From NCBI GenBank assembly GCA_009839835.1, contig VXOY01000032.1, positions 1-38,860 of the forward strand: a DNA stretch of 38,860 bases. The letters run 5' to 3'. Of the stretch, positions 34,201 through 38,860 are shown piece after piece. Every line of letters begins with the position of its first letter. Position 1 is the first letter of the stretch. A program made the translations under genes and the position numbers. Under the pieces are notes generated by a model. It was not told the DNA's origin and searched no databases. It was given only the letters and a program-made list of their open reading frames with translations. The DNA comes from Candidatus Spechtbacteria bacterium SB0662_bin_43. GTDB taxonomy: Bacteria > Patescibacteriota > Minisyncoccia > Spechtbacterales > 2-12-FULL-38-22.

Positions 34201-34425
34201 CGCCTCTACTTCGTTATACTTTGGTTCCTCAAACTTGTAGTCGCCAAACGATACCTCTAATTCCTTGCCTGAAAAATCAGTAATAGGAGAAACCTCATCC
34301 AGCAACGAACGAAGTCCAGAGGCGAGGAACCATTCGTACGATGCTCGCTGTATCTCCAGTAGGTTTGGTATCTCTGTTTCCTTGTGGGAATACCGAGAAA
34401 AAACTTTTGTTTTGATGGTAGTCAT
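31201..34425 (-). CDS. rpoB: RNA polymerase beta subunit
   Basis: SQLSQFMD..NPL, HYGRICPI.TPEGPNIG, GDKLAGRHGNKG, GGQRFGEMEVW. Confidence 0.99.
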   Translation of the reverse strand: MTTIKTKVFSRYSHKETEIPNLLEIQRASYEWFLASGLRSLLDEVSPITDFSGKELEVSFGDYKFEEPKYNEVEARRQNASYESALRVTAQLLVKKTGEIKEQEIYLGTFPIMTERGTFIINGVGRVMISQLIRSSGVFFTDVMSRGKHLFCAKIIPNRGAWLEFETEYTDVIYVKIDRKRKVAATTLLRAFGMSTADIKKAFQKVDTGSVQYIAETLKQDAAKNQVEAFIEIYKRIRPGDLATPENAQSLVENTFFNFDRYDLSNVGRWKTDQRLGELFEITGDTPKEAKDGFSYTKEERVLHKNDVIRIIAEIIRMNNDHDAVPDDIDHLGNRRVRSVGETLQNRLRLGLTRMERIAKDKMSTLDIDSITPSQIINIRPVASVVNEFFASSQLSQFMDNTNPLAELEHKRILSATGPGGLTRDRAGFEVRDVQPSHYGRICPIQTPEGPNIGLVGRLSIFARINGFGFLETPYYVVKNGKITNEIHYLNALQEERAYIAAGTTDITIKDGVILDKEVSCRFRGTPTQIPTKKIQYIDVSPKQFISVATALVPFIEHDDAKRALMASNMQRQAVPCIRPEDPFVGTGLEERVARDSGLLVIAESNGKVVSSDAKHIKVRYNATKKQASHTKQYDLNNFVRGNQYTVIHQSAKVNAGAVVKKGDILADTSSVKDGFLSLGKNLLVAFMSWRGCNFEDAIVLNERLVKDDVLSSVYIEDQSTDVRETKLGPEITTPDIPNVGEDKLRNLDEEGIVRIGADVGPGDILVGKISPKGEADLTSEERLLRAIFGEKARDVKDTSLRMPHGKRGRVVGITVFSRDNGEKLPTGVIKKIQVEIAELRKIEAGDKLAGRHGNKGVISRVLPEEEMPFAPDGTPVDIILNPLGVPSRMNIGQILEVHLGWAAGTLGYRAITPAFSGATEADIKSELVRAGLPEDGKITLRDGQTGEPFHQPVTVGYMYIMKLVHMVEDKIHMRSIGPYSLITQQPLGGKAQFGGQRFGEMEVWALEGYGAAHNLQEILTIKSDDVLGRSSAYESIIKGEEIKKPNIPESFNVLVNEIKGLGLNVEIEETKED

Positions 34426-34555
34426 AGTGAGTGGGTTTTAGGGTGAAAAAATTACAACAGAACACCTGCCATTGTTACGGCAGTTTCTAAAATGCACTAT
34501 AATAAACCCAGCGTGCGAACATTGATCTCCCGCACACTGCTTGTTTGTTCTTTTT

Positions 34556-34584
34556 ATTGTAATACACTATGTTTATTTCGTCAA
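34556..34584 (-). promoter_or_regulatory. sigma70-type promoter of rpoBC
   Basis: TTGACG-17 nt-TACAAT on the minus strand, giving a leader of about 125 nt. Confidence 0.7.
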
Positions 34585-34610
34585 ACTATGTTTCCCAAGA
34601 AAAAATCATA

Positions 34611-34754
34611 CCTCTCTCTCCCTCATTCTCCCTTCCCTCTCCCTCTTTCTCCTTCTCCTTTCCTCCCCCACCTATCTCTTCCTCTCTTTTCTCTCTCCTT
34701 TTTCCCTCTTCCCCTCCCTCTTTTTTTCTCTTCTCTCTTCCTCCCCCTCCTCTC
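34611..34754. repeat. polypyrimidine/polypurine low-complexity tract
   Basis: 144 nt of C/T on the + strand, with only three A and no G. Confidence 0.9.
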
Positions 34755-34905
34755 ACACACTGGAATCTGGAATATGGAACAAAAATAAAAACAGGCAGAT
34801 GGGTTGGTAGGGATACAATTCTTTCAAAAGGTATCGTCAAGGAGTGATTGAAATTAACTGATTTTAGAAAACACGCATTTTTGGGGATAATTCGGTGTTT
34901 TGAAT

Positions 34906-34934
34906 ATTTAATTTCAACCCCCTTGAAATTAAAT
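34906..34934. promoter_or_regulatory. 12-bp inverted repeat, operator-like
   Basis: ATTTAATTTCAA-CCCCC-TTGAAATTAAAT, plus an extra half-site TTGAAATTAA at 34848-34857. Confidence 0.5.
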
Positions 34935-35054
34935 GAAAGTACGAAACGGCTATGGATATAAAAAGATACCTTTGGTAGAGAAGAATCAATAACACAGAAT
35001 TTGGTCGTACTGAGTTAAGAACATAAATAGGTTCATAGATAAGATTAAAGAGTA

Positions 35055-35081
35055 AATCCCCCCGCTTGTAGCGGGGGGATT
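35055..35081 (-). terminator. intrinsic terminator of the 95-aa gene
   Basis: AATCCCCCCGCT/AGCGGGGGGATT stem, followed on the minus strand by T-rich sequence. Confidence 0.7.
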
Positions 35082-35086
35082 ACCCC

Positions 35087-35374
35087 TCAGAGAAGGAGAG
35101 GAGAGTGCGGCTCCAGGATGTCGCCATCAAATGGCTCCAGGTAGTAGTCAAGGATAGGTCTTCCGTCGTCATGGATGTCAACGGTGTACCACCCTTTTCG
35201 AACCCACCACTCTGGGTGACCATAGTGCTTCTCACAGAGCCTGCAAAAGAATGCTTTACAGGGATTTCTCGCTCCCCTCTCCTTTGCTCGCACCCCATTC
35301 ATCACAACATTGCGATGCCTGGGACACTTCACCTCTCTGCGTCCTGGTACTATATGAGGTCGAATTCCAGGCAT
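35087..35374 (-). CDS. small hypothetical protein, putative Zn-binding (CxxH...CxxC)
   Basis: GGAGG shortly before the ATG, an upstream TTGACT...TGnTATAAA, a downstream terminator, and motifs CPRH and CRLC. Confidence 0.6.
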   Translation of the reverse strand: MPGIRPHIVPGRREVKCPRHRNVVMNGVRAKERGARNPCKAFFCRLCEKHYGHPEWWVRKGWYTVDIHDDGRPILDYYLEPFDGDILEPHSPLLL

Positions 35375-35465
35375 CTCTGCCTCCCTTCAGTACATTCTTT
35401 ATAACATATTTTCAAAAAAAGTCAATACCTATAGCGCCCCTCAATTATTGACTATGACACATATA

Positions 35466-35494
35466 TTGACATAAAGCATATAGTATGTTATGCT
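35466..35494 (+). promoter_or_regulatory. sigma70-type promoter of the 20-aa peptide gene
   Basis: TTGACA-17 nt-TATGCT with an extended -10 TG. Confidence 0.7.
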
Positions 35495-35528
35495 ATATAT
35501 ACCTGTCAGCAGTTAGAAAGGATACGAG

Positions 35529-35591
35529 ATGGACGCCGAGATTGCGACGCTCGCAATCCTTGCTGGGCTTTTCGTTCTCAGTCTGTTGTGA
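35529..35591 (+). CDS. 20-aa hydrophobic peptide MDAEIATLAILAGLFVLSLL (below the ORF-track cutoff)
   Basis: Has its own promoter, an SD AGAAAGGA 6 nt before the ATG, a TGA stop and its own terminator. Confidence 0.65.
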   Translation: MDAEIATLAILAGLFVLSLL

Positions 35592-35604
35592 TTGCAGCAC
35601 TCTT

Positions 35605-35638
35605 GCAGAGGAGAGTATAAACCCTCTGCTTTTGTTTT
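35605..35638 (+). terminator. intrinsic terminator
   Basis: GCAGAGG/CCTCTGC stem followed by TTTTGTTTT. Confidence 0.7.
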
Positions 35639-35705
35639 AATACAATTATTCGGATCTACCCATTGCCTCAACCCTTCTTGTGTAATGTATGCTCCGCAAC
35701 AGAGC

Positions 35706-35736
35706 ATATAAACATAATGAACAATTATGGTTTTAC
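35706..35736 (+). other. putative tyrosine-recombinase crossover site A (dif-like), overlapping the pilin A start codon
   Basis: ATATAAACATAA-TGAACAA-TTATGGTTTTAC. Same core as site B, in opposite orientation. Confidence 0.65.
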
Positions 35737-36256
35737 CTTGATTGAGTTACTTGTTGTGATTGCAATTATAGGAACTCTATCTACGATAGGTTTCATTGCT
35801 CTTACATCCTCACAAGAGGGGGCAAATGAGTCCGTGACGGTTAGTGAGTTGCAAACAATACGGTCTGCAATCACTATTAACTATGTATCAGCGGCTGGAC
35901 TACCAGAGGTCGTGGGTGGTAAAGGGGCTATAAAACTAAAGACAAGTACATCGGCAGGTATTTTGGGATGTGAGTTGGCGAATACCGCAAGCTCTATTGG
36001 CACAAAGTTGGCAGGAAAGGTTGAGGGTATTGATTGGAGCAAATATGTGTTCTGTGCTGATAAAGCAGGAAAAGGAGACGGGGCAAGAACGGTTTTGATT
36101 GGTACAGTTGCGGGAGGAGCATTGGATTCAAAACACACATTCTTGGGTGGTAGCGCAAAAGATGTAGTGCCTGTAGGAAATGGAGTAGTAGGCTTAGATT
36201 GTAGCCTAAAAACAGCACCTACAAAAACGATACCCTGTATAAAAATAGAGAAATAA
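35717..36256 (+). CDS. type IV pilin-like protein A (possibly a silent cassette)
   Basis: Class III signal MNNYG|FTLIELLVVIAIIG and 4 Cys in the variable domain. No clear SD. Confidence 0.88.
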   Translation: MNNYGFTLIELLVVIAIIGTLSTIGFIALTSSQEGANESVTVSELQTIRSAITINYVSAAGLPEVVGGKGAIKLKTSTSAGILGCELANTASSIGTKLAGKVEGIDWSKYVFCADKAGKGDGARTVLIGTVAGGALDSKHTFLGGSAKDVVPVGNGVVGLDCSLKTAPTKTIPCIKIEK

Positions 36257-36274
36257 CATAGTGTATTCCTCGCA

Positions 36275-36310
36275 ATACAAAAAACACCTCGTTTGAGGTG
36301 TTTTTTGTAT
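36275..36310. terminator. bidirectional terminator between the convergent pilins
   Basis: 16-bp perfect stem ATACAAAAAACACCTC/GAGGTGTTTTTTGTAT with A/T tracts on both sides. Confidence 0.85.
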
Positions 36311-36336
36311 GATGCTATGTGCAATATGTCTATGGA

Positions 36337-36870
36337 TTACGGTGTAAGTGTTCCAACACAGTAAAGCCCTCCTGTTGTACCACCCGCTATACATGTAATT
36401 TGCTTCGGTGCTGTAGAACCACCGTATGTTCCTGCAGCCGCACCGCCATTAGGTAATGCTCCTTTTAGTGTTGTTGCTACTAAAAACTTACTTCCTGTGC
36501 CATCACTACAATAAAAGTAGTTGTCTTTATCCACGCCCGTAAGCTGTCCAATCATACTACCAAGAGGTGTTGCTGATGCTCCCGTTGTCGTTGCTGATGT
36601 CTTTGAGGTGTGGTCAGCCGCTGTGGTGTCTGTGTTTTGTCCATCTAACCTTATACAATCCTCACTTCCAGCAGTTACAATAGGATATACTCTATTTTTG
36701 GAAAGCTCAACAGTCGCTGCAGACCTTATGCTTTGTAGCTCTGCTAACCTTTTTGCATCATCTGCACCATCGCTTGCCCCACTTAGAGCCAAGAACCCAA
36801 TCGTTGATAGAGTTCCTATGATTGCAATAACTACCAGTAACTCAATCAAGGTAAAACCATAATTGTTCAT
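36337..36870 (-). CDS. type IV pilin-like protein B (promoter/RBS-linked copy)
   Basis: MNNYG|FTLIELLVVIAIIG and 4 Cys. GAGGG SD-like motif and TGnTATGAT extended -10 upstream. Confidence 0.9.
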   Translation of the reverse strand: MNNYGFTLIELLVVIAIIGTLSTIGFLALSGASDGADDAKRLAELQSIRSAATVELSKNRVYPIVTAGSEDCIRLDGQNTDTTAADHTSKTSATTTGASATPLGSMIGQLTGVDKDNYFYCSDGTGSKFLVATTLKGALPNGGAAAGTYGGSTAPKQITCIAGGTTGGLYCVGTLTP

Positions 36871-36881
36871 TATGTTAATAC
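36851..36881 (-). other. putative tyrosine-recombinase crossover site B (dif-like), overlapping the pilin B start codon
   Basis: The + strand reads GTAAAACCATAA-TTGTTCA-TTATGTTAATAC. The arms are 9/12 palindromic, and the right arm matches the XerD arm of E. coli dif (TTATGTTAAAT) at 9 consecutive bases. Confidence 0.7.
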
Positions 36882-36930
36882 CCTCTTTTCTTTTTGTTTT
36901 TATCAATATGCTTGATATCATAACAGTATA
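36880..36930 (-). repeat. 51-bp pilin promoter/leader, left copy of an exact inverted repeat
   Basis: Its reverse complement is identical to 38806-38856. Confidence 0.9.
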
Positions 36931-37005
36931 TAATATAAATAATAATTAGATACTCCAATTATACCACACCGACAATAGAGGGTTATACACAAGGGGTGTC
37001 TTTTT

Positions 37006-37926
37006 TTAATTCATAACTTTTGCGACAATATTTTCTATGTCTTGTTGCCCATAATGAAGATATATTTGCGTGGTTACAATGCTTTTATGTCGCATGATTT
37101 CTTTTACAGCATACAGGTTTTGATTATGACGTAGGTATTTTGTTGCTGTATAGTGTCGCAAGGTATGGGGTGAAATAGGATATTGTACATCAGCTCGTAT
37201 GCCAGCCTTTTTAACCATATTATAAATTGCTGTACGACTCATTCTGTTCCACTTCATTGTTTTGGTGTTTTTTGATAAAAAAAGAGCTCTATTTTTTTCT
37301 GTACAACGATGAAGGTATTCTCGTATATGGTTATACGTATGCATCGTGAGAAATACAGTTTCGTTTTTACCTCCTTTACCTCGCACTGTTATGCGTGAAA
37401 CCCTCTTCAGTAACGCCTCTTGGGGTATATCCTCTCTATTGAGGGAACATAACTCGCTGACACGCAGTCCACTGGTTGCAAGAAATGATACAATAGCCCT
37501 ATCACGTAATCCTTCTATGGTAGAGGTATCAAAACTGTTGAGGATATTTTTTATCTCCCTATCGCTGAGAATAACTCTTTTGTGTGTCGTATGCTTTACG
37601 GACTCAAGTAACGCAATACGAATGTTGGCGTATTCCTGTTTGTTCAACCAAGATGCAAAACACTTATATATAGTCATAAAATAACGTATAGATGACATTG
37701 ATAATCCTTGTATTCTCATTTTTCCTATACAACTATTGATGCAATGATGATCTAAGTCTTCAATATATTCTACTTGAATATATTCTGTAAAACGGTTCAT
37801 AGCGTGTGTGTACATCAAAACACTGTTTTGCGACAATCCTCGGTCCTCACAGGAAATAAGGTACTCTTTGATGTAGTGGTTTATATGCGTTTCTCTTCTA
37901 CTCTTTGTTGTTGATTGATTTTTCAT
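37006..37926 (-). CDS. Xer-like tyrosine recombinase
   Basis: 306 aa with catalytic R (SGLRVSEL), K (GKGGK), HxLR (HTLRH), H (MRHKS) and Y (TTQIY). N-terminal SAM-like core-binding domain. Confidence 0.93.
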   Translation of the reverse strand: MKNQSTTKSRRETHINHYIKEYLISCEDRGLSQNSVLMYTHAMNRFTEYIQVEYIEDLDHHCINSCIGKMRIQGLSMSSIRYFMTIYKCFASWLNKQEYANIRIALLESVKHTTHKRVILSDREIKNILNSFDTSTIEGLRDRAIVSFLATSGLRVSELCSLNREDIPQEALLKRVSRITVRGKGGKNETVFLTMHTYNHIREYLHRCTEKNRALFLSKNTKTMKWNRMSRTAIYNMVKKAGIRADVQYPISPHTLRHYTATKYLRHNQNLYAVKEIMRHKSIVTTQIYLHYGQQDIENIVAKVMN

Positions 37927-38000
37927 ACTATAGTGATAATTGATACGATATTTTCATAGAGTAGATTACTATTTCGGTCAAGAAATTCGTTGCTCAAAGA

Positions 38001-38024
38001 AAAAATGCTCATCACAGCATTTTT
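38001..38024 (-). terminator. hairpin/terminator between the NYN gene and the recombinase
   Basis: AAAAATGCT/AGCATTTTT stem with T-rich flanks. Confidence 0.5.
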
Positions 38025-38027
38025 GTT

Positions 38028-38082
38028 AAGGAGTGTAAGGGTGTTAGTACCTAAGCTACTCTTTTCTTTTTTTAGTTTAAAC
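38028..38082 (+). repeat. diverged second copy of the NYN-adjacent structured element
   Basis: GGTGTTAGTACCTAAGCTACTCTTTTCTTTTTTTAGTTTAAAC versus GGTGTTGGTGCCTAAGCTACCCCTTTCTTTTTTTTTAATTTAAAC (38193-38237). Confidence 0.8.
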
Positions 38083-38133
38083 ACCCTACAGTATGTATTT
38101 CGTGAAATAAAAACAGTGTGTGGATAATGCTTA

Positions 38134-38162
38134 TTGACAAAAAAATGGTGGGGATTTATAAT
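38134..38162 (+). promoter_or_regulatory. perfect consensus sigma70 promoter
   Basis: TTGACA-17 nt-TATAAT, pointing at the 3' end of the NYN gene with no ORF downstream. Confidence 0.85.
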
Positions 38163-38168
38163 GGAGAT

Positions 38169-38228
38169 GTAACCACGAAGGGGGGCGCGAACGGTGTTGG
38201 TGCCTAAGCTACCCCTTTCTTTTTTTTT
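38169..38228 (+). ncRNA. putative ~60-nt structured small RNA, convergent with the NYN gene
   Basis: Consensus promoter, stems AAGGGG/CCCCTT and GGCGC/GTGCC, a terminal U tract, and a second covarying copy nearby. Confidence 0.6.
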
Positions 38229-38712
38229 AATTTAAACGTTCGATTTTATGTTTTATAGTCGAGAGATGCATTGCGTACCTGTCTCCAATGCTTTTGTATA
38301 ATGAAGATTTGTTTTTATTAGGGAATAGTATTTTTCCGAATTTATTTTCATCAATAAGAAAATTTACCAATTTATAATAATCACCATCTCCTGAAACAAT
38401 AAAAATCTTTTCAATATCGCTTCGTTTTAGTAAGGCTTTCATAACAGAAAATACAAGATCAACATCAATGTTTCCCTTTTTAGGAGACAGCATTTTTTCA
38501 TTATGATCCTTGAATTGAAGAATATACCCAATTTGTTGTAGTGTGTTATATAAATCTGTTTTTCCCGCTTTTACATACCCAAAAAAGCAATACACCTCTT
38601 CAATATTGTATTTATCCCGTAAATAAATACGAAATTTTTTATAATCTACTCTCCACCCATATTTTTGGGTTCCATAGTATAAGTTTTGTTCATCTATAAA
38701 TGCGATATTCAT
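38227..38712 (-). CDS. NYN domain protein (LabA/DUF88, PIN-like RNase fold)
   Basis: Acidic active-site motifs AFIDEQNL, KGNIDVDL, IVSGDGDY. Confidence 0.9.
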   Translation of the reverse strand: MNIAFIDEQNLYYGTQKYGWRVDYKKFRIYLRDKYNIEEVYCFFGYVKAGKTDLYNTLQQIGYILQFKDHNEKMLSPKKGNIDVDLVFSVMKALLKRSDIEKIFIVSGDGDYYKLVNFLIDENKFGKILFPNKNKSSLYKSIGDRYAMHLSTIKHKIERLN

Positions 38713-38805
38713 AGGTTTTGTTGCTTAGATATATATCTTATTATTATACAGCATTTATGCTTGTTTTTCTATTTTTAGAATACATAGAATAATCGTAACT
38801 CATTG

Positions 38806-38860
38806 TATACTGTTATGATATCAAGCATATTGATAAAAACAAAAAGAAAAGAGGGTTTTA
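38806..38860 (+). repeat. right copy of the pilin promoter/leader repeat; runs off the window edge
   Basis: 54 of 55 nt match the reverse complement of 36876-36930, and the first 51 are identical. Confidence 0.9.

Follow-up and report, generated by a model that had tools for sequence, protein, structure and literature searches.

The window analysed here (38,860 nt) is the whole of contig C1 in the 32-contig, 755.6-kb genome of Candidatus Spechtbacteria bacterium SB0662_bin_43. Its right-hand end carries two tail-to-tail type IV pilin genes, an accessory tyrosine recombinase gene, an NYN-domain gene and, at the very edge, the start of what is very probably a third pilin gene, together with inverted repeats that recur at the start of a second, 47-kb contig (C31). 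The features are as follows, with a slash marking the prepilin cleavage site.

35711-35751 and 36836-36876, no strand assigned: exact block of 41 nt common to pilins A and B, inverted (longest exact run 41)
35714-36256, plus strand: pilin A, type IV prepilin with leader MNNYG/F and A-type body (Pfam N_methyl PF07963, E 2.6e-7; ORF list)
36337-36921, minus strand: pilin B, with B-type body (Pfam N_methyl, E 1.4e-7; ORF list)
36856-36879, minus strand: 24 nt coding INIMNNYG in pilin B, absent from the C1-end and C31-start copies of the repeat
36880-36930, minus strand: copy 1 of the 51-nt repeat, comprising the pilin B codons MISSILIKTKRKEG and the 9 nt that precede them
37006-37926, minus strand: accessory Xer-like tyrosine recombinase, Phage_integrase/SAM_1 (PF00589, 9.5e-32; PF02899, 9.2e-8)
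38227-38712, minus strand: NYN-domain gene NYN1 (PF01936, 5.3e-14)
38806-38856, plus strand: copy 2 of the 51-nt repeat, inverted (repeat search and BLAST)
38815-38860, plus strand: 5' end of the probable third pilin ORF, running off the contig (translation MISSILIKTKRKEGF, Phe+1 codon at 38857-38859)
C31, 5-55: copy 3 of the 51-nt repeat (BLAST)

Pilins A and B both read G/FTLIELLVVIAIIG and carry the N-terminal methylation motif (PF07963). Pilin A is 180 aa long and pilin B 177-194 aa, depending on whether its long ORF starts at ATG 36921, with leader MISSILIKTKRKEGINIMNNYG/F, or at the alternative start 36870 (MNNYG/F); the 194-aa form is present in the protein collection as P0001, and the homologues (163-186 aa) are all full length. 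The 5' ends of the two genes form an inverted pair (I1, 105 nt at 88%) around the 41-nt exact block, and outside this block the arms, over 24 residues in common, differ synonymously at 8 codons, so that homogenisation is local. Both the 41-nt and the 51-nt inverted exact blocks hold one palindrome of the 6-5-6 type, that of the former (CATAAT-GAACA-ATTATG, at 35713 and 36858) spanning the pilin A start codon. The chance of a 6-5-6 palindrome in a random segment is 1.8% for 51 nt and 1.3% for 41 nt, rising to 7.8% and 5.6%, respectively, when spacers of 3-9 nt are allowed. A further candidate at the locus, an HNH nuclease at ORF 35087-35374, was rejected as it had no Pfam match.

The recombinase retains the catalytic positions R, K, HxxR, H and Y in an alignment, and its close relatives are few. 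Matches were found in 57 of 61 related genomes, none above 35% identity and all housekeeping-like Xer genes, while the best match at 66 loci from GTDB representatives was partial and reached 37%. Among the best 120 of 3807 recombinase matches, only P0121 (97%) and P0122 (48%) exceed 36%, and the nearest named relatives among the matches listed, 36% identical at most, resemble XerD or integron integrases. By these sequence comparisons the recombinase is private to its lineage.

An earlier note on this DNA had claimed that the window ends in an inverted copy of the pilin B 5' region, and both the repeat search and BLAST bear this out. The inverted pair (I2) has arms of 59 nt at 36876-36934 and 38802-38860, 97% complementary and 1867 nt apart, with an exact core of 51 nt (36880-36930 versus 38806-38856); the recombinase and NYN1 genes, as placed by Pfam, lie between the arms as had been described. 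The abrupt 5' boundary seen in the terminal copy holds for all three copies (pilin B, C1 end and C31 start), which diverge sharply just 5' of TATACTG. They are 100% identical over the 51 nt, whereas identity between pilin bodies of different types is 27-44%. The signals that the note had recognised are present as strings, with TGTTATGAT at 38811-38819, the palindrome TATCAA-GCATA-TTGATA at 38819-38835, and AAGAGGG, but the label of Shine-Dalgarno (SD) sequence given to the last is doubtful because the 3' end of the 16S rRNA reads ...GGATAGAACATTTT, without the anti-SD motif CCTCC, which leaves it without a partner. A further string, TGGTATAAT, was seen by eye within the bracketed segment, some 30 nt 5' of the pilin B copy, with none comparable before the C1-end copy. 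A consensus promoter scan found no plus-strand site at 38713-38815, flagged neither TGTTATGAT nor TGGTATAAT, and found no outward promoter at either end; an Rfam search of 34300-38860 (E <= 1) returned only two sub-threshold chance matches.

To judge from its translation, the terminal repeat is probably coding rather than a promoter and leader. Read from the ATG at 38815, in the pilin B frame, it gives MISSILIKTKRKEGF, with 15 residues visible and both Gly-1 and Phe+1 present, and the N-termini of the full-length pilins P0004, P0009 and P0010 are identical to it over residues 1-15. The repeat would thus begin with 9 nt of upstream sequence and go on, from a start codon, into a basic class-III signal peptide (MISSILIKTKRKEG) that ends at a Gly/Phe cleavage site. 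The last 7 nt of the window, GGTTTTA, match exactly the codons for Gly-1/Phe+1/Thr in pilins A and B, and the sequence in homologues from the same species is MISSILIKTKRKEG/FTLIELL; past 38860 the third gene, pilin C, would accordingly run into CCTTGATTGAG-like FTLIELL codons. The apparent mismatch at 38857 is better read, in an alignment of the copies, as a 24-nt indel (INIMNNYG), which makes the predicted continuation ACATAATG... probably wrong. The third pilin that had been placed about 5 nt past the edge is therefore right in its outward, plus-strand orientation, but its start probably lies inside the window, at ATG 38815 or TTG 38830.

The window end is also a contig end at a repeat node, as had been suspected. 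Reverse-complemented, the final 55 nt of C1 equal the opening 55 nt of C31, and the break in C1 falls at a graph node that two contigs enter. In this assembly the overlap is exactly 55 nt at eight pairs of contig ends and 77, 99 or 127 nt at none, which identifies 55 as the assembler's k; an exact inverted repeat of at least this length, common to C31, explains the break, and heterogeneity from inversion, which had been offered as its cause, is not required. Both the 55-nt length of the repeat and the contig break should be taken, as a practical lesson, as products of the assembler's k.

Adjoining DNA was sought by exact 41-mer scans of a metagenome contig collection and a genome contig collection (0 matches in each), and by a related-locus search with P0002, a JGI-sourced homologue (201 pattern stretches, none confirmed). 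Altogether, no DNA past the window end came to light in three scans of collections and one based on proteins, so the continuation is inferred from homologues. When the repeat and the pilin N-termini were compared by BLAST with all 32 contigs, copies were confined to C1 and the start of C31, and a tblastn search of the genome's contigs with ten homologous pilins gave matches in C1 and otherwise just distant pilins, on C6 and C18, from which it follows that the bin lacks a third pilin body. Logan contigs of runs from two studies carry the terminal copy, each extending 40-49 nt past the window edge: a 105-nt contig of run X1 holds the 55-mer plus 49 nt beyond the window end, and a 481-nt contig of run X2, from a different study, matches the 55-mer with 0 mismatches. 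The C1-end and C31 copies are 100% identical over at least 104 nt (Logan contig). In run X4, a 51-nt Logan contig equals 36880-36930 exactly, at a depth of 10 versus 3.1-4 in the flanks (about 3x), and in X1 one contig has a depth of 79 versus about 50 in the flanks, which is compatible with one or two physical copies. The 49-nt overhang in X1 was considered as an arbiter between the two continuations and rejected, as either fits given synonymous differences in pilins C and D. The Logan contigs of X1 stop exactly at the 41-nt block; they leave 38325-38776 uncovered, to which no meaning is attached.

A same-species contig of 124,800 nt from ENA carries a recombinase (P0121) that is 97% identical over 241 aa, orthologues of NYN1 (P0367, 97.5%) and of the C31 NYN gene (P0244, 98%), and four pilins, each with a start codon and a signal peptide, the evidence being their co-residence on one contig. 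The four pilins are:

P0007: leader MNNYG, A-type body
P0003: leader MISSIL..INIMNNYG, B-type body
P0010: leader MISSILIKTKRKEG/F, A-type body
P0004: leader MISSILIKTKRKEG/F, B-type body

Leaders are common within a strain and different between strains, and a 94%-identical pilin body stands behind different leaders in two assemblies (P0008 versus P0014).

Third and fourth pilins in the locus are well supported, and so is the earlier proposal of more than two pilins beside the recombinase. The same 55-mer opens C31 in inverted form, and a fourth gene, pilin D, would face the opposite way there. Since this 55-mer is shared, inverted, by the end of C1 and the start of C31, the two contigs are most likely neighbours, and we consider their adjacency in the genome probable. 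The gap between them would measure about 1 kb and hold two tail-to-tail pilin bodies between perfect inverted repeats of at least 55 nt, which an assembler with k = 55 cannot cross. The predicted order is pilin A (rightward), pilin B (leftward), recombinase, NYN1, pilin C (rightward), pilin D (leftward) and NYN2, and the locus looks like a duplicated unit of a pilin pair and an NYN gene, one of the two copies having a private tyrosine recombinase inserted into it.

The best overall explanation, to which we assign a probability of about 0.5, is a four-pilin locus with recombinase-driven re-pairing of 5' ends. The recombinase would invert the DNA between the 41-nt (A/B) and 51-nt (B/C/D) inverted 5' coding blocks, which match perfectly inside one genome and differ from strain to strain, and each inversion would re-pair fixed 5' ends (promoter and signal peptide) with different pilin bodies; the outcome would be shufflon-like variation of the pilus in an episymbiotic CPR bacterium. 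Inverted repeats lie within oppositely oriented paralogous coding sequences (I1 and I2), with the recombinase between the pairs, as in programmed inversions. Recombinase-driven inversion itself may be real, at a little under even odds. The fuller picture is more tentative: in it the locus would be a chromosomal shufflon-like system of a sponge-associated CPR/Patescibacteria episymbiont, in which a private recombinase reassorts the 5' ends and bodies of four complete pilins, and with them host-attachment specificity, leaving as footprints a broken contig and, between strains, reshuffled leaders and bodies.

A static family of paralogues, with four pilins in two convergent pairs and nothing programmed, is the strongest competitor and a serious possibility, if not the one we would choose. 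The 5' identity would then come from recent segmental duplication, occasional gene conversion and constraint on the protein sequence of both the signal peptide and the N-terminal helix; the recombinase, an accessory Xer-like gene, would be unrelated or in decay, and the break would reflect an assembler meeting a long inverted repeat, for which a repeat of at least k indeed accounts. The units are visibly duplicated: NYN1 is 67% identical to its paralogue NYN2 at the start of C31, beside each NYN gene stand two copies of the same small hairpin element, and the regions upstream of pilin B and of the C31 copy resemble each other. Every pilin has its own start, and the gene-pseudogene size asymmetry of inversion cassettes is absent, pilins A and B and their homologues all being full length; if all four complete pilins are expressed, a swap of 5' ends changes little. 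In the sister strain with the 124.8-kb contig, the recombinase ORF is cut short at aa 245 of 306, ahead of the HxxR, H and Y positions, yet three identical MISSIL leaders occur there, so leader identity needs no active enzyme; alternatively, that truncation is recent or a sequencing error. No inversion was seen in any of the four runs, all represented by Logan contigs that end at repeats and are for that reason uninformative on orientation. Set against the static view are the perfect identity of three copies over 51 nt, and of the two copies at the C1 end and in C31 over 104 nt or more, beside bodies so divergent across types; the abrupt boundaries of the blocks; the leaders shared within a strain and differing between strains; and the position of a private recombinase, with an intact catalytic set, exactly between the pilin pairs.

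The first reading of the sequence took the 51-nt repeat as a non-coding promoter and leader, placed a third pilin about 5 nt beyond the edge with ACATAATGAACAATTATGG, and proposed a Hin-like flip of the recombinase-NYN segment that would give two outward expression sites; it predicts ACATAATGAAC... past the window end. The string TGTTATGAT does make a fair extended -10 in all three copies, an ungapped alignment gives 54/55 matches, and with TGGTATAAT only upstream of the pilin B copy, a flip could move a promoter between pilins B and C. This reading is nevertheless improbable. The ATG within TATGAT opens a frame into pilin B and, in P0004, P0009 and P0010, into FTLIELL; copies of the KEGF type lack an ATG after the supposed SD, which itself has no CCTCC anti-SD in the 16S rRNA, and a start there would lose the G/F cleavage site. 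Among the pilin matches listed, KEGF occurs in 3/120 and the KEGFN that this reading would produce in 0/120, which together with the terminal Gly/Phe/Thr codons makes ACATAATGAACAATTATGG an unlikely continuation. The promoter scan likewise gave it no plus-strand site at 38713-38815, and the enzyme is a tyrosine recombinase rather than a Hin-type serine invertase. A repeat that looks like a promoter with an SD is thus better read as coding in an organism whose 16S rRNA has no anti-SD. That the terminal 55 nt are a fold-back, chimeric read end or mis-join in a genome without a third copy, as might be suspected from their position at the very contig end and a length equal to k, can safely be set aside, because the terminal copy departs from the internal one after nt 51 and is shared exactly with C31, recurs without mismatch and 40-49 nt further in runs from two studies, is represented in X4 by a 51-mer at about three times flank depth, and has counterparts in three MISSIL-type pilins on the sister-strain contig.

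Recombinase-driven re-pairing of pilin 5' ends would have parallels in several known systems. In the R64/IncI shufflon, the tyrosine recombinase Rci acts at sfx sites on one pilV gene with a constant N-terminal part and C-terminal segments without starts of their own. The present locus is alike in having a tyrosine recombinase beside oppositely oriented type IV pilin coding sequences and inverted repeats inside the coding region, but its repeats lie at the extreme 5' end and its pilins each have a start and a signal peptide, pilins A and B and four homologues being complete instead of sharing one constant 5' part; it is also chromosomal, in a CPR bacterium, and the nearest named relatives of its recombinase among the matches listed are XerD-like. 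In the Q/I switch of Moraxella bovis and M. lacunata, Piv inverts DNA at a tail-to-tail pair of pilin genes, the end-points falling where the conserved N-terminus is encoded. Piv does not belong to the tyrosine recombinases, and that system has just the one pair, served by one expression site. Tail-to-tail pilins, an adjacent recombinase gene and one 5' end joinable to either body are common to both, whereas the present locus would have two such pairs with three or four 5' ends, and its enzyme is of the Phage_integrase family. The Mycoplasma switches (Xer1 with vpma/vsp, HvsR with vsa) use one promoter or expression site and many silent lipoprotein genes. They resemble the present locus in the accessory Xer-like tyrosine recombinase beside a surface-protein family and in near-identical 5' ends (5' UTR plus signal peptide), which in Mycoplasma hold the recombination sites, and differ in that each gene here looks complete and encodes a pilin, not a lipoprotein. 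An invertible promoter of the Hin/Gin type depends on a serine invertase, unlike the Phage_integrase (tyrosine) family enzyme found here.

Shufflons are also described as a cause of assembly breaks (PMC5430464; on shufflons see also bioRxiv 10.1101/2024.10.25.620183). Among the targets of predicted programmed inversions, 'pilin' is enriched with an odds ratio of 8.4 according to Table 1 of Milman et al. 2023 (PMC9881135), where gene-altering inversions are said usually to pair a full gene with 5'-truncated cassettes ('gene-pseudogene size asymmetry'). As far as that account goes, our locus shares the inverted repeats in opposed paralogous coding sequences near a recombinase and differs in lacking the asymmetry; the terms 'Patescibacteria' and 'Candidate Phyla' are absent from the article's main text. 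A full-text literature search joining Patescibacteria or CPR with pilin or pili and with inverted repeat or DNA inversion found no papers.

Attachment to host cells and DNA uptake in CPR/Patescibacteria are believed to rely on type IV pili. If the proposed re-pairing is true, recombinase-driven variation of the major pilin would be a first example of programmed surface variation in these bacteria, and would have a bearing on their host range and escape from phages.

The inverted repeat that the earlier note had placed at the window's end was borne out, as a repeat search recovered a 59-nt pair that is 97% complementary, with 51 exact nt by BLAST (36880-36930 against 38806-38856). Its arms bracket a tyrosine recombinase and an NYN gene (NYN1), and the convergent pilins A and B lie to the left. 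The window is all of contig C1 (38,860 nt) in a genome of 755.6 kb and 32 contigs, and the runs that contain this stretch are labelled sponge metagenome.

Features of the locus and its hairpin elements (L001 is a stretch at the start of contig C31)
35714-36256, + strand: pilin A (PF07963)
36337-36870/36921, - strand: pilin B (PF07963)
35711-35751 and 36836-36876, inverted: 41-nt exact block of pilins A and B
36876-36934 and 38802-38860, inverted: the repeat pair
37006-37926, - strand: tyrosine recombinase (Pfam PF00589, 9.5e-32; PF02899, 9.2e-8)
38227-38712, - strand: NYN1 (Pfam PF01936, 5.3e-14)
38130-38240 and 38037-38082: hairpin elements in the window
L001 216-267 and 363-425: hairpin elements on C31
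L001 417-902, - strand: NYN2, paralogue 67% identical to NYN1
C13:12799-12894, C12:8981-9051 and C29:1116-1153: hairpin elements elsewhere in the genome

A perfect inverted repeat of 16 bp (36275-36310, loop of 4 nt) separates the stop codons of pilins A and B; A and T runs lie on both sides of it, and it is likely a bidirectional terminator of the convergent pair. No recognisable gene lies in the ~1.3 kb from rpoB to pilin A (34426-35700). Low-complexity, CT-rich sequence occupies 34590-34790 (repeat families D1 and D7), and a 95-aa ORF lacking a Pfam match (35087-35374, - strand) lies in a stretch richer in GC. Upstream of pilin A (35466-35713), a promoter-like TTGACA-17-TATGCT with TG (10/12) stands ~220 nt 5' of the ATG, which would give a long leader with a hairpin (35540-35560); Rfam returned no match at E <= 1 for this stretch.

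The last 55 nt of C1 are the exact reverse complement of the first 55 nt of C31 (47,466 nt). When 64 contig ends were compared, eight end-to-end pairs had exactly 55 nt in common, three further ends matched inside another contig, and none overlapped by 77, 99 or 127 nt, which is the signature of de Bruijn assembly with k = 55; C1 and the reverse-complemented C31 thus enter one graph node, and 55 is not a biological length. Shorter blocks, the 51-nt block upstream of pilin B and the 41-nt A/B block, were assembled through without a break. A repeat longer than k, present twice in inverted orientation, is enough to account for the contig end, so that heterogeneity from inversion, once offered as its cause, is not needed. 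A fold-back or chimeric read end is contradicted, since the terminal copy departs from the pilin B copy after nt 51, is common to two long contigs (C1, C31), and recurs with further sequence in run X1 (a 105-nt contig with the 55-mer and 49 nt past the window end; 0 mismatches in all aligned pieces) and in run X2, from another study and ~3-11% divergent in its aligned pieces (a 481-nt contig with the exact 55-mer and 40 nt beyond). In run X4, a 51-nt contig spanning exactly 36880-36930 has depth 10 versus 3.1-4 in its flanks, which suggests about three copies of the 51-mer.

The repeat, described earlier as promoter and Shine-Dalgarno (SD) sequence, is probably coding. The pilin B ORF is open upstream to an ATG at 36921, reading MISSILIKTKRKEG-INIMNNYG|FTLIELL..., and the same ATG near the window end (38815, + strand) opens MISSILIKTKRKEGF. 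Versus pilin B, the C1-end and C31 copies are without 24 nt (ATT...GGT, INIMNNYG, 36856-36879), and the window's last 7 nt, GGTTTTA, equal the Gly-1/Phe+1/Thr codons of pilin A (35729-35735), so that an indel junction is the best explanation of the "mismatch" at 38857. A protein search with pilin B gave 177 proteins at E <= 1e-5; among the best 120 listed, the MISSIL leader occurs in five, namely window pilin B, P0003, with a long leader as in pilin B, and P0004, P0009 and P0010, in which MISSILIKTKRKEG runs directly into FTLIELL. Leaders of the other 110-odd homologues listed are short, basic and Gly-ending (e.g. MKKKG), a pattern to which MISSILIKTKRKEG conforms and MNNYG does not. The continuation predicted earlier is probably wrong, as its product, KEGFN..., appears in 0 of the 120 matches listed. 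If the extended -10 candidate TGTTATGAT (38811-38819) is used, the start would have to be the in-frame TTG at 38830, with leader M-IKTKRKEG. The expected third pilin is very probable, and a fourth is well supported, but with either start (38815 or 38830) the third begins inside the window and not past 38860. The SD label on AAGAGGG is probably wrong as well, because the 16S rRNA gene (C22:26270-27742; ~2940-2975 of the C22 stretch L017) ends in ...GGAAGCTGTGGATAGAACATTTTT / ...GGATAGAACATTTT, without the CCTCC anti-SD partner, a point that matters for every SD assignment made in this genome.

Past the 55-mer, C31 continues with a terminator-like hairpin and the small hairpin element in two copies, as beside NYN1, followed by NYN2 and uvrC. 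The regions upstream of pilin B and of the C31 copy are alike, both having AAAGACACC...hairpin and GGTG(T/G)GGTAT, and with the NYN and hairpin copies the locus resembles a duplicated unit (pilin> <pilin, hairpin elements, <NYN), in the first of which the recombinase looks to have been inserted. One ENA contig (124,800 nt) of a same-species strain holds together four pilins, P0121 (recombinase orthologue, 97% identical), P0367 (NYN1 orthologue, 97.5%), P0244 (orthologue of the C31 NYN, 98%) and P0245, a third NYN. Its pilins have two A-type (P0007, P0010) and two B-type bodies (P0003, P0004), and their leaders (one MNNYG, one long, two KEGF) match pilin A, pilin B and the C1-end and C31-start copies, which argues that C1 and C31 are, quite probably, neighbours; the short gap would most likely hold two tail-to-tail pilin bodies. 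The hairpin and T-run elements number at least seven, convergent to the 3' ends of NYN genes or remnants. A perfect TTGACA-17-TATAAT promoter (38134-38162, 12/12) stands in front of a window element, which folds no better than shuffles (z = -1.3) and has no Rfam match; these elements may act as a bidirectional terminator or encode a small RNA, linked in either case to NYN genes.

The pilin bodies are hypervariable between strains, as runs X2, X4 and X5, from related strains, cover the flanks, recombinase and NYN at ~90-99% identity and yield no contig at >= 90% over the bodies (35839-36177, 36517-36629); in an X4 contig of 959 nt, the same N-termini and terminator enclose different bodies. No inverted arrangement was seen in the runs examined, all of them available as Logan contigs that end at the repeats.

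We put recombinase-driven inversion at roughly 0.45; the shufflon idea is attractive, and we infer it from sequence. The recombinase retains all catalytic positions and is private to the species (best match <= 35% among 60 relatives and <= 37% in GTDB representatives; only P0121 (97%) and P0122 (48%) stand out among the matches listed from a 5.8-billion-protein search). A convergent pilin pair lies on each side of it, and the 5' ends of these pilins are formed by exact inverted blocks with sharp boundaries. The blocks are identical within the genome, and other strains have other leaders (MQRFFLGIKNDKKG, MNTNIIRGYVANNKG). Each exact block contains a 6-5-6 palindrome (0.53 per kb genome-wide; chance per block 1.8% and 1.3%). 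Bodies 94% identical stand behind different leaders in two assemblies, MQRFFLGIKNDKKGINIMNNYG in P0008 (20,412-nt contig) and MNTNIIRGYVANNKG in P0014 (17,859-nt contig), and within each contig two pilins have a common leader part beside the cleavage site, a pattern that reads as 5' ends and bodies being reassorted as modules. Predicted programmed inversions are enriched for pilins among their targets (PMC9881135). A static duplicated cluster is a somewhat less likely alternative. Against inversion, each pilin seems complete, without the usual asymmetry between gene and cassettes, and the A/B arms outside the 41-nt block differ at 8 synonymous codons in 24 shared residues. The sister recombinase P0121 stops at residue 245 of 306, ahead of the catalytic HxxR, His and Tyr. 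In that strain one assembled contig holds the whole four-pilin locus, and this combination may reflect chance, a frameshift from sequencing or a frozen switch.

Full-text literature searches yielded nothing joining Patescibacteria/CPR, pilin/pili and inverted repeat/DNA inversion, and Patescibacteria were absent also from the top 12 matches of a broader search. If inversion occurs, its working mode would be like the pilin shufflon and Moraxella pilin inversion. In architecture the locus seems closest to the Mycoplasma Xer1/vpma type, in which an accessory Xer-like recombinase accompanies a gene family with common 5' ends. Two defining features are absent: in the R64 shufflon a single expressed gene is served by cassettes that lack starts, and the inversion signature published in PMC9881135 includes size asymmetry. 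The locus is therefore not filed as a member of either class. If inversion is confirmed, the locus would be a new variant.
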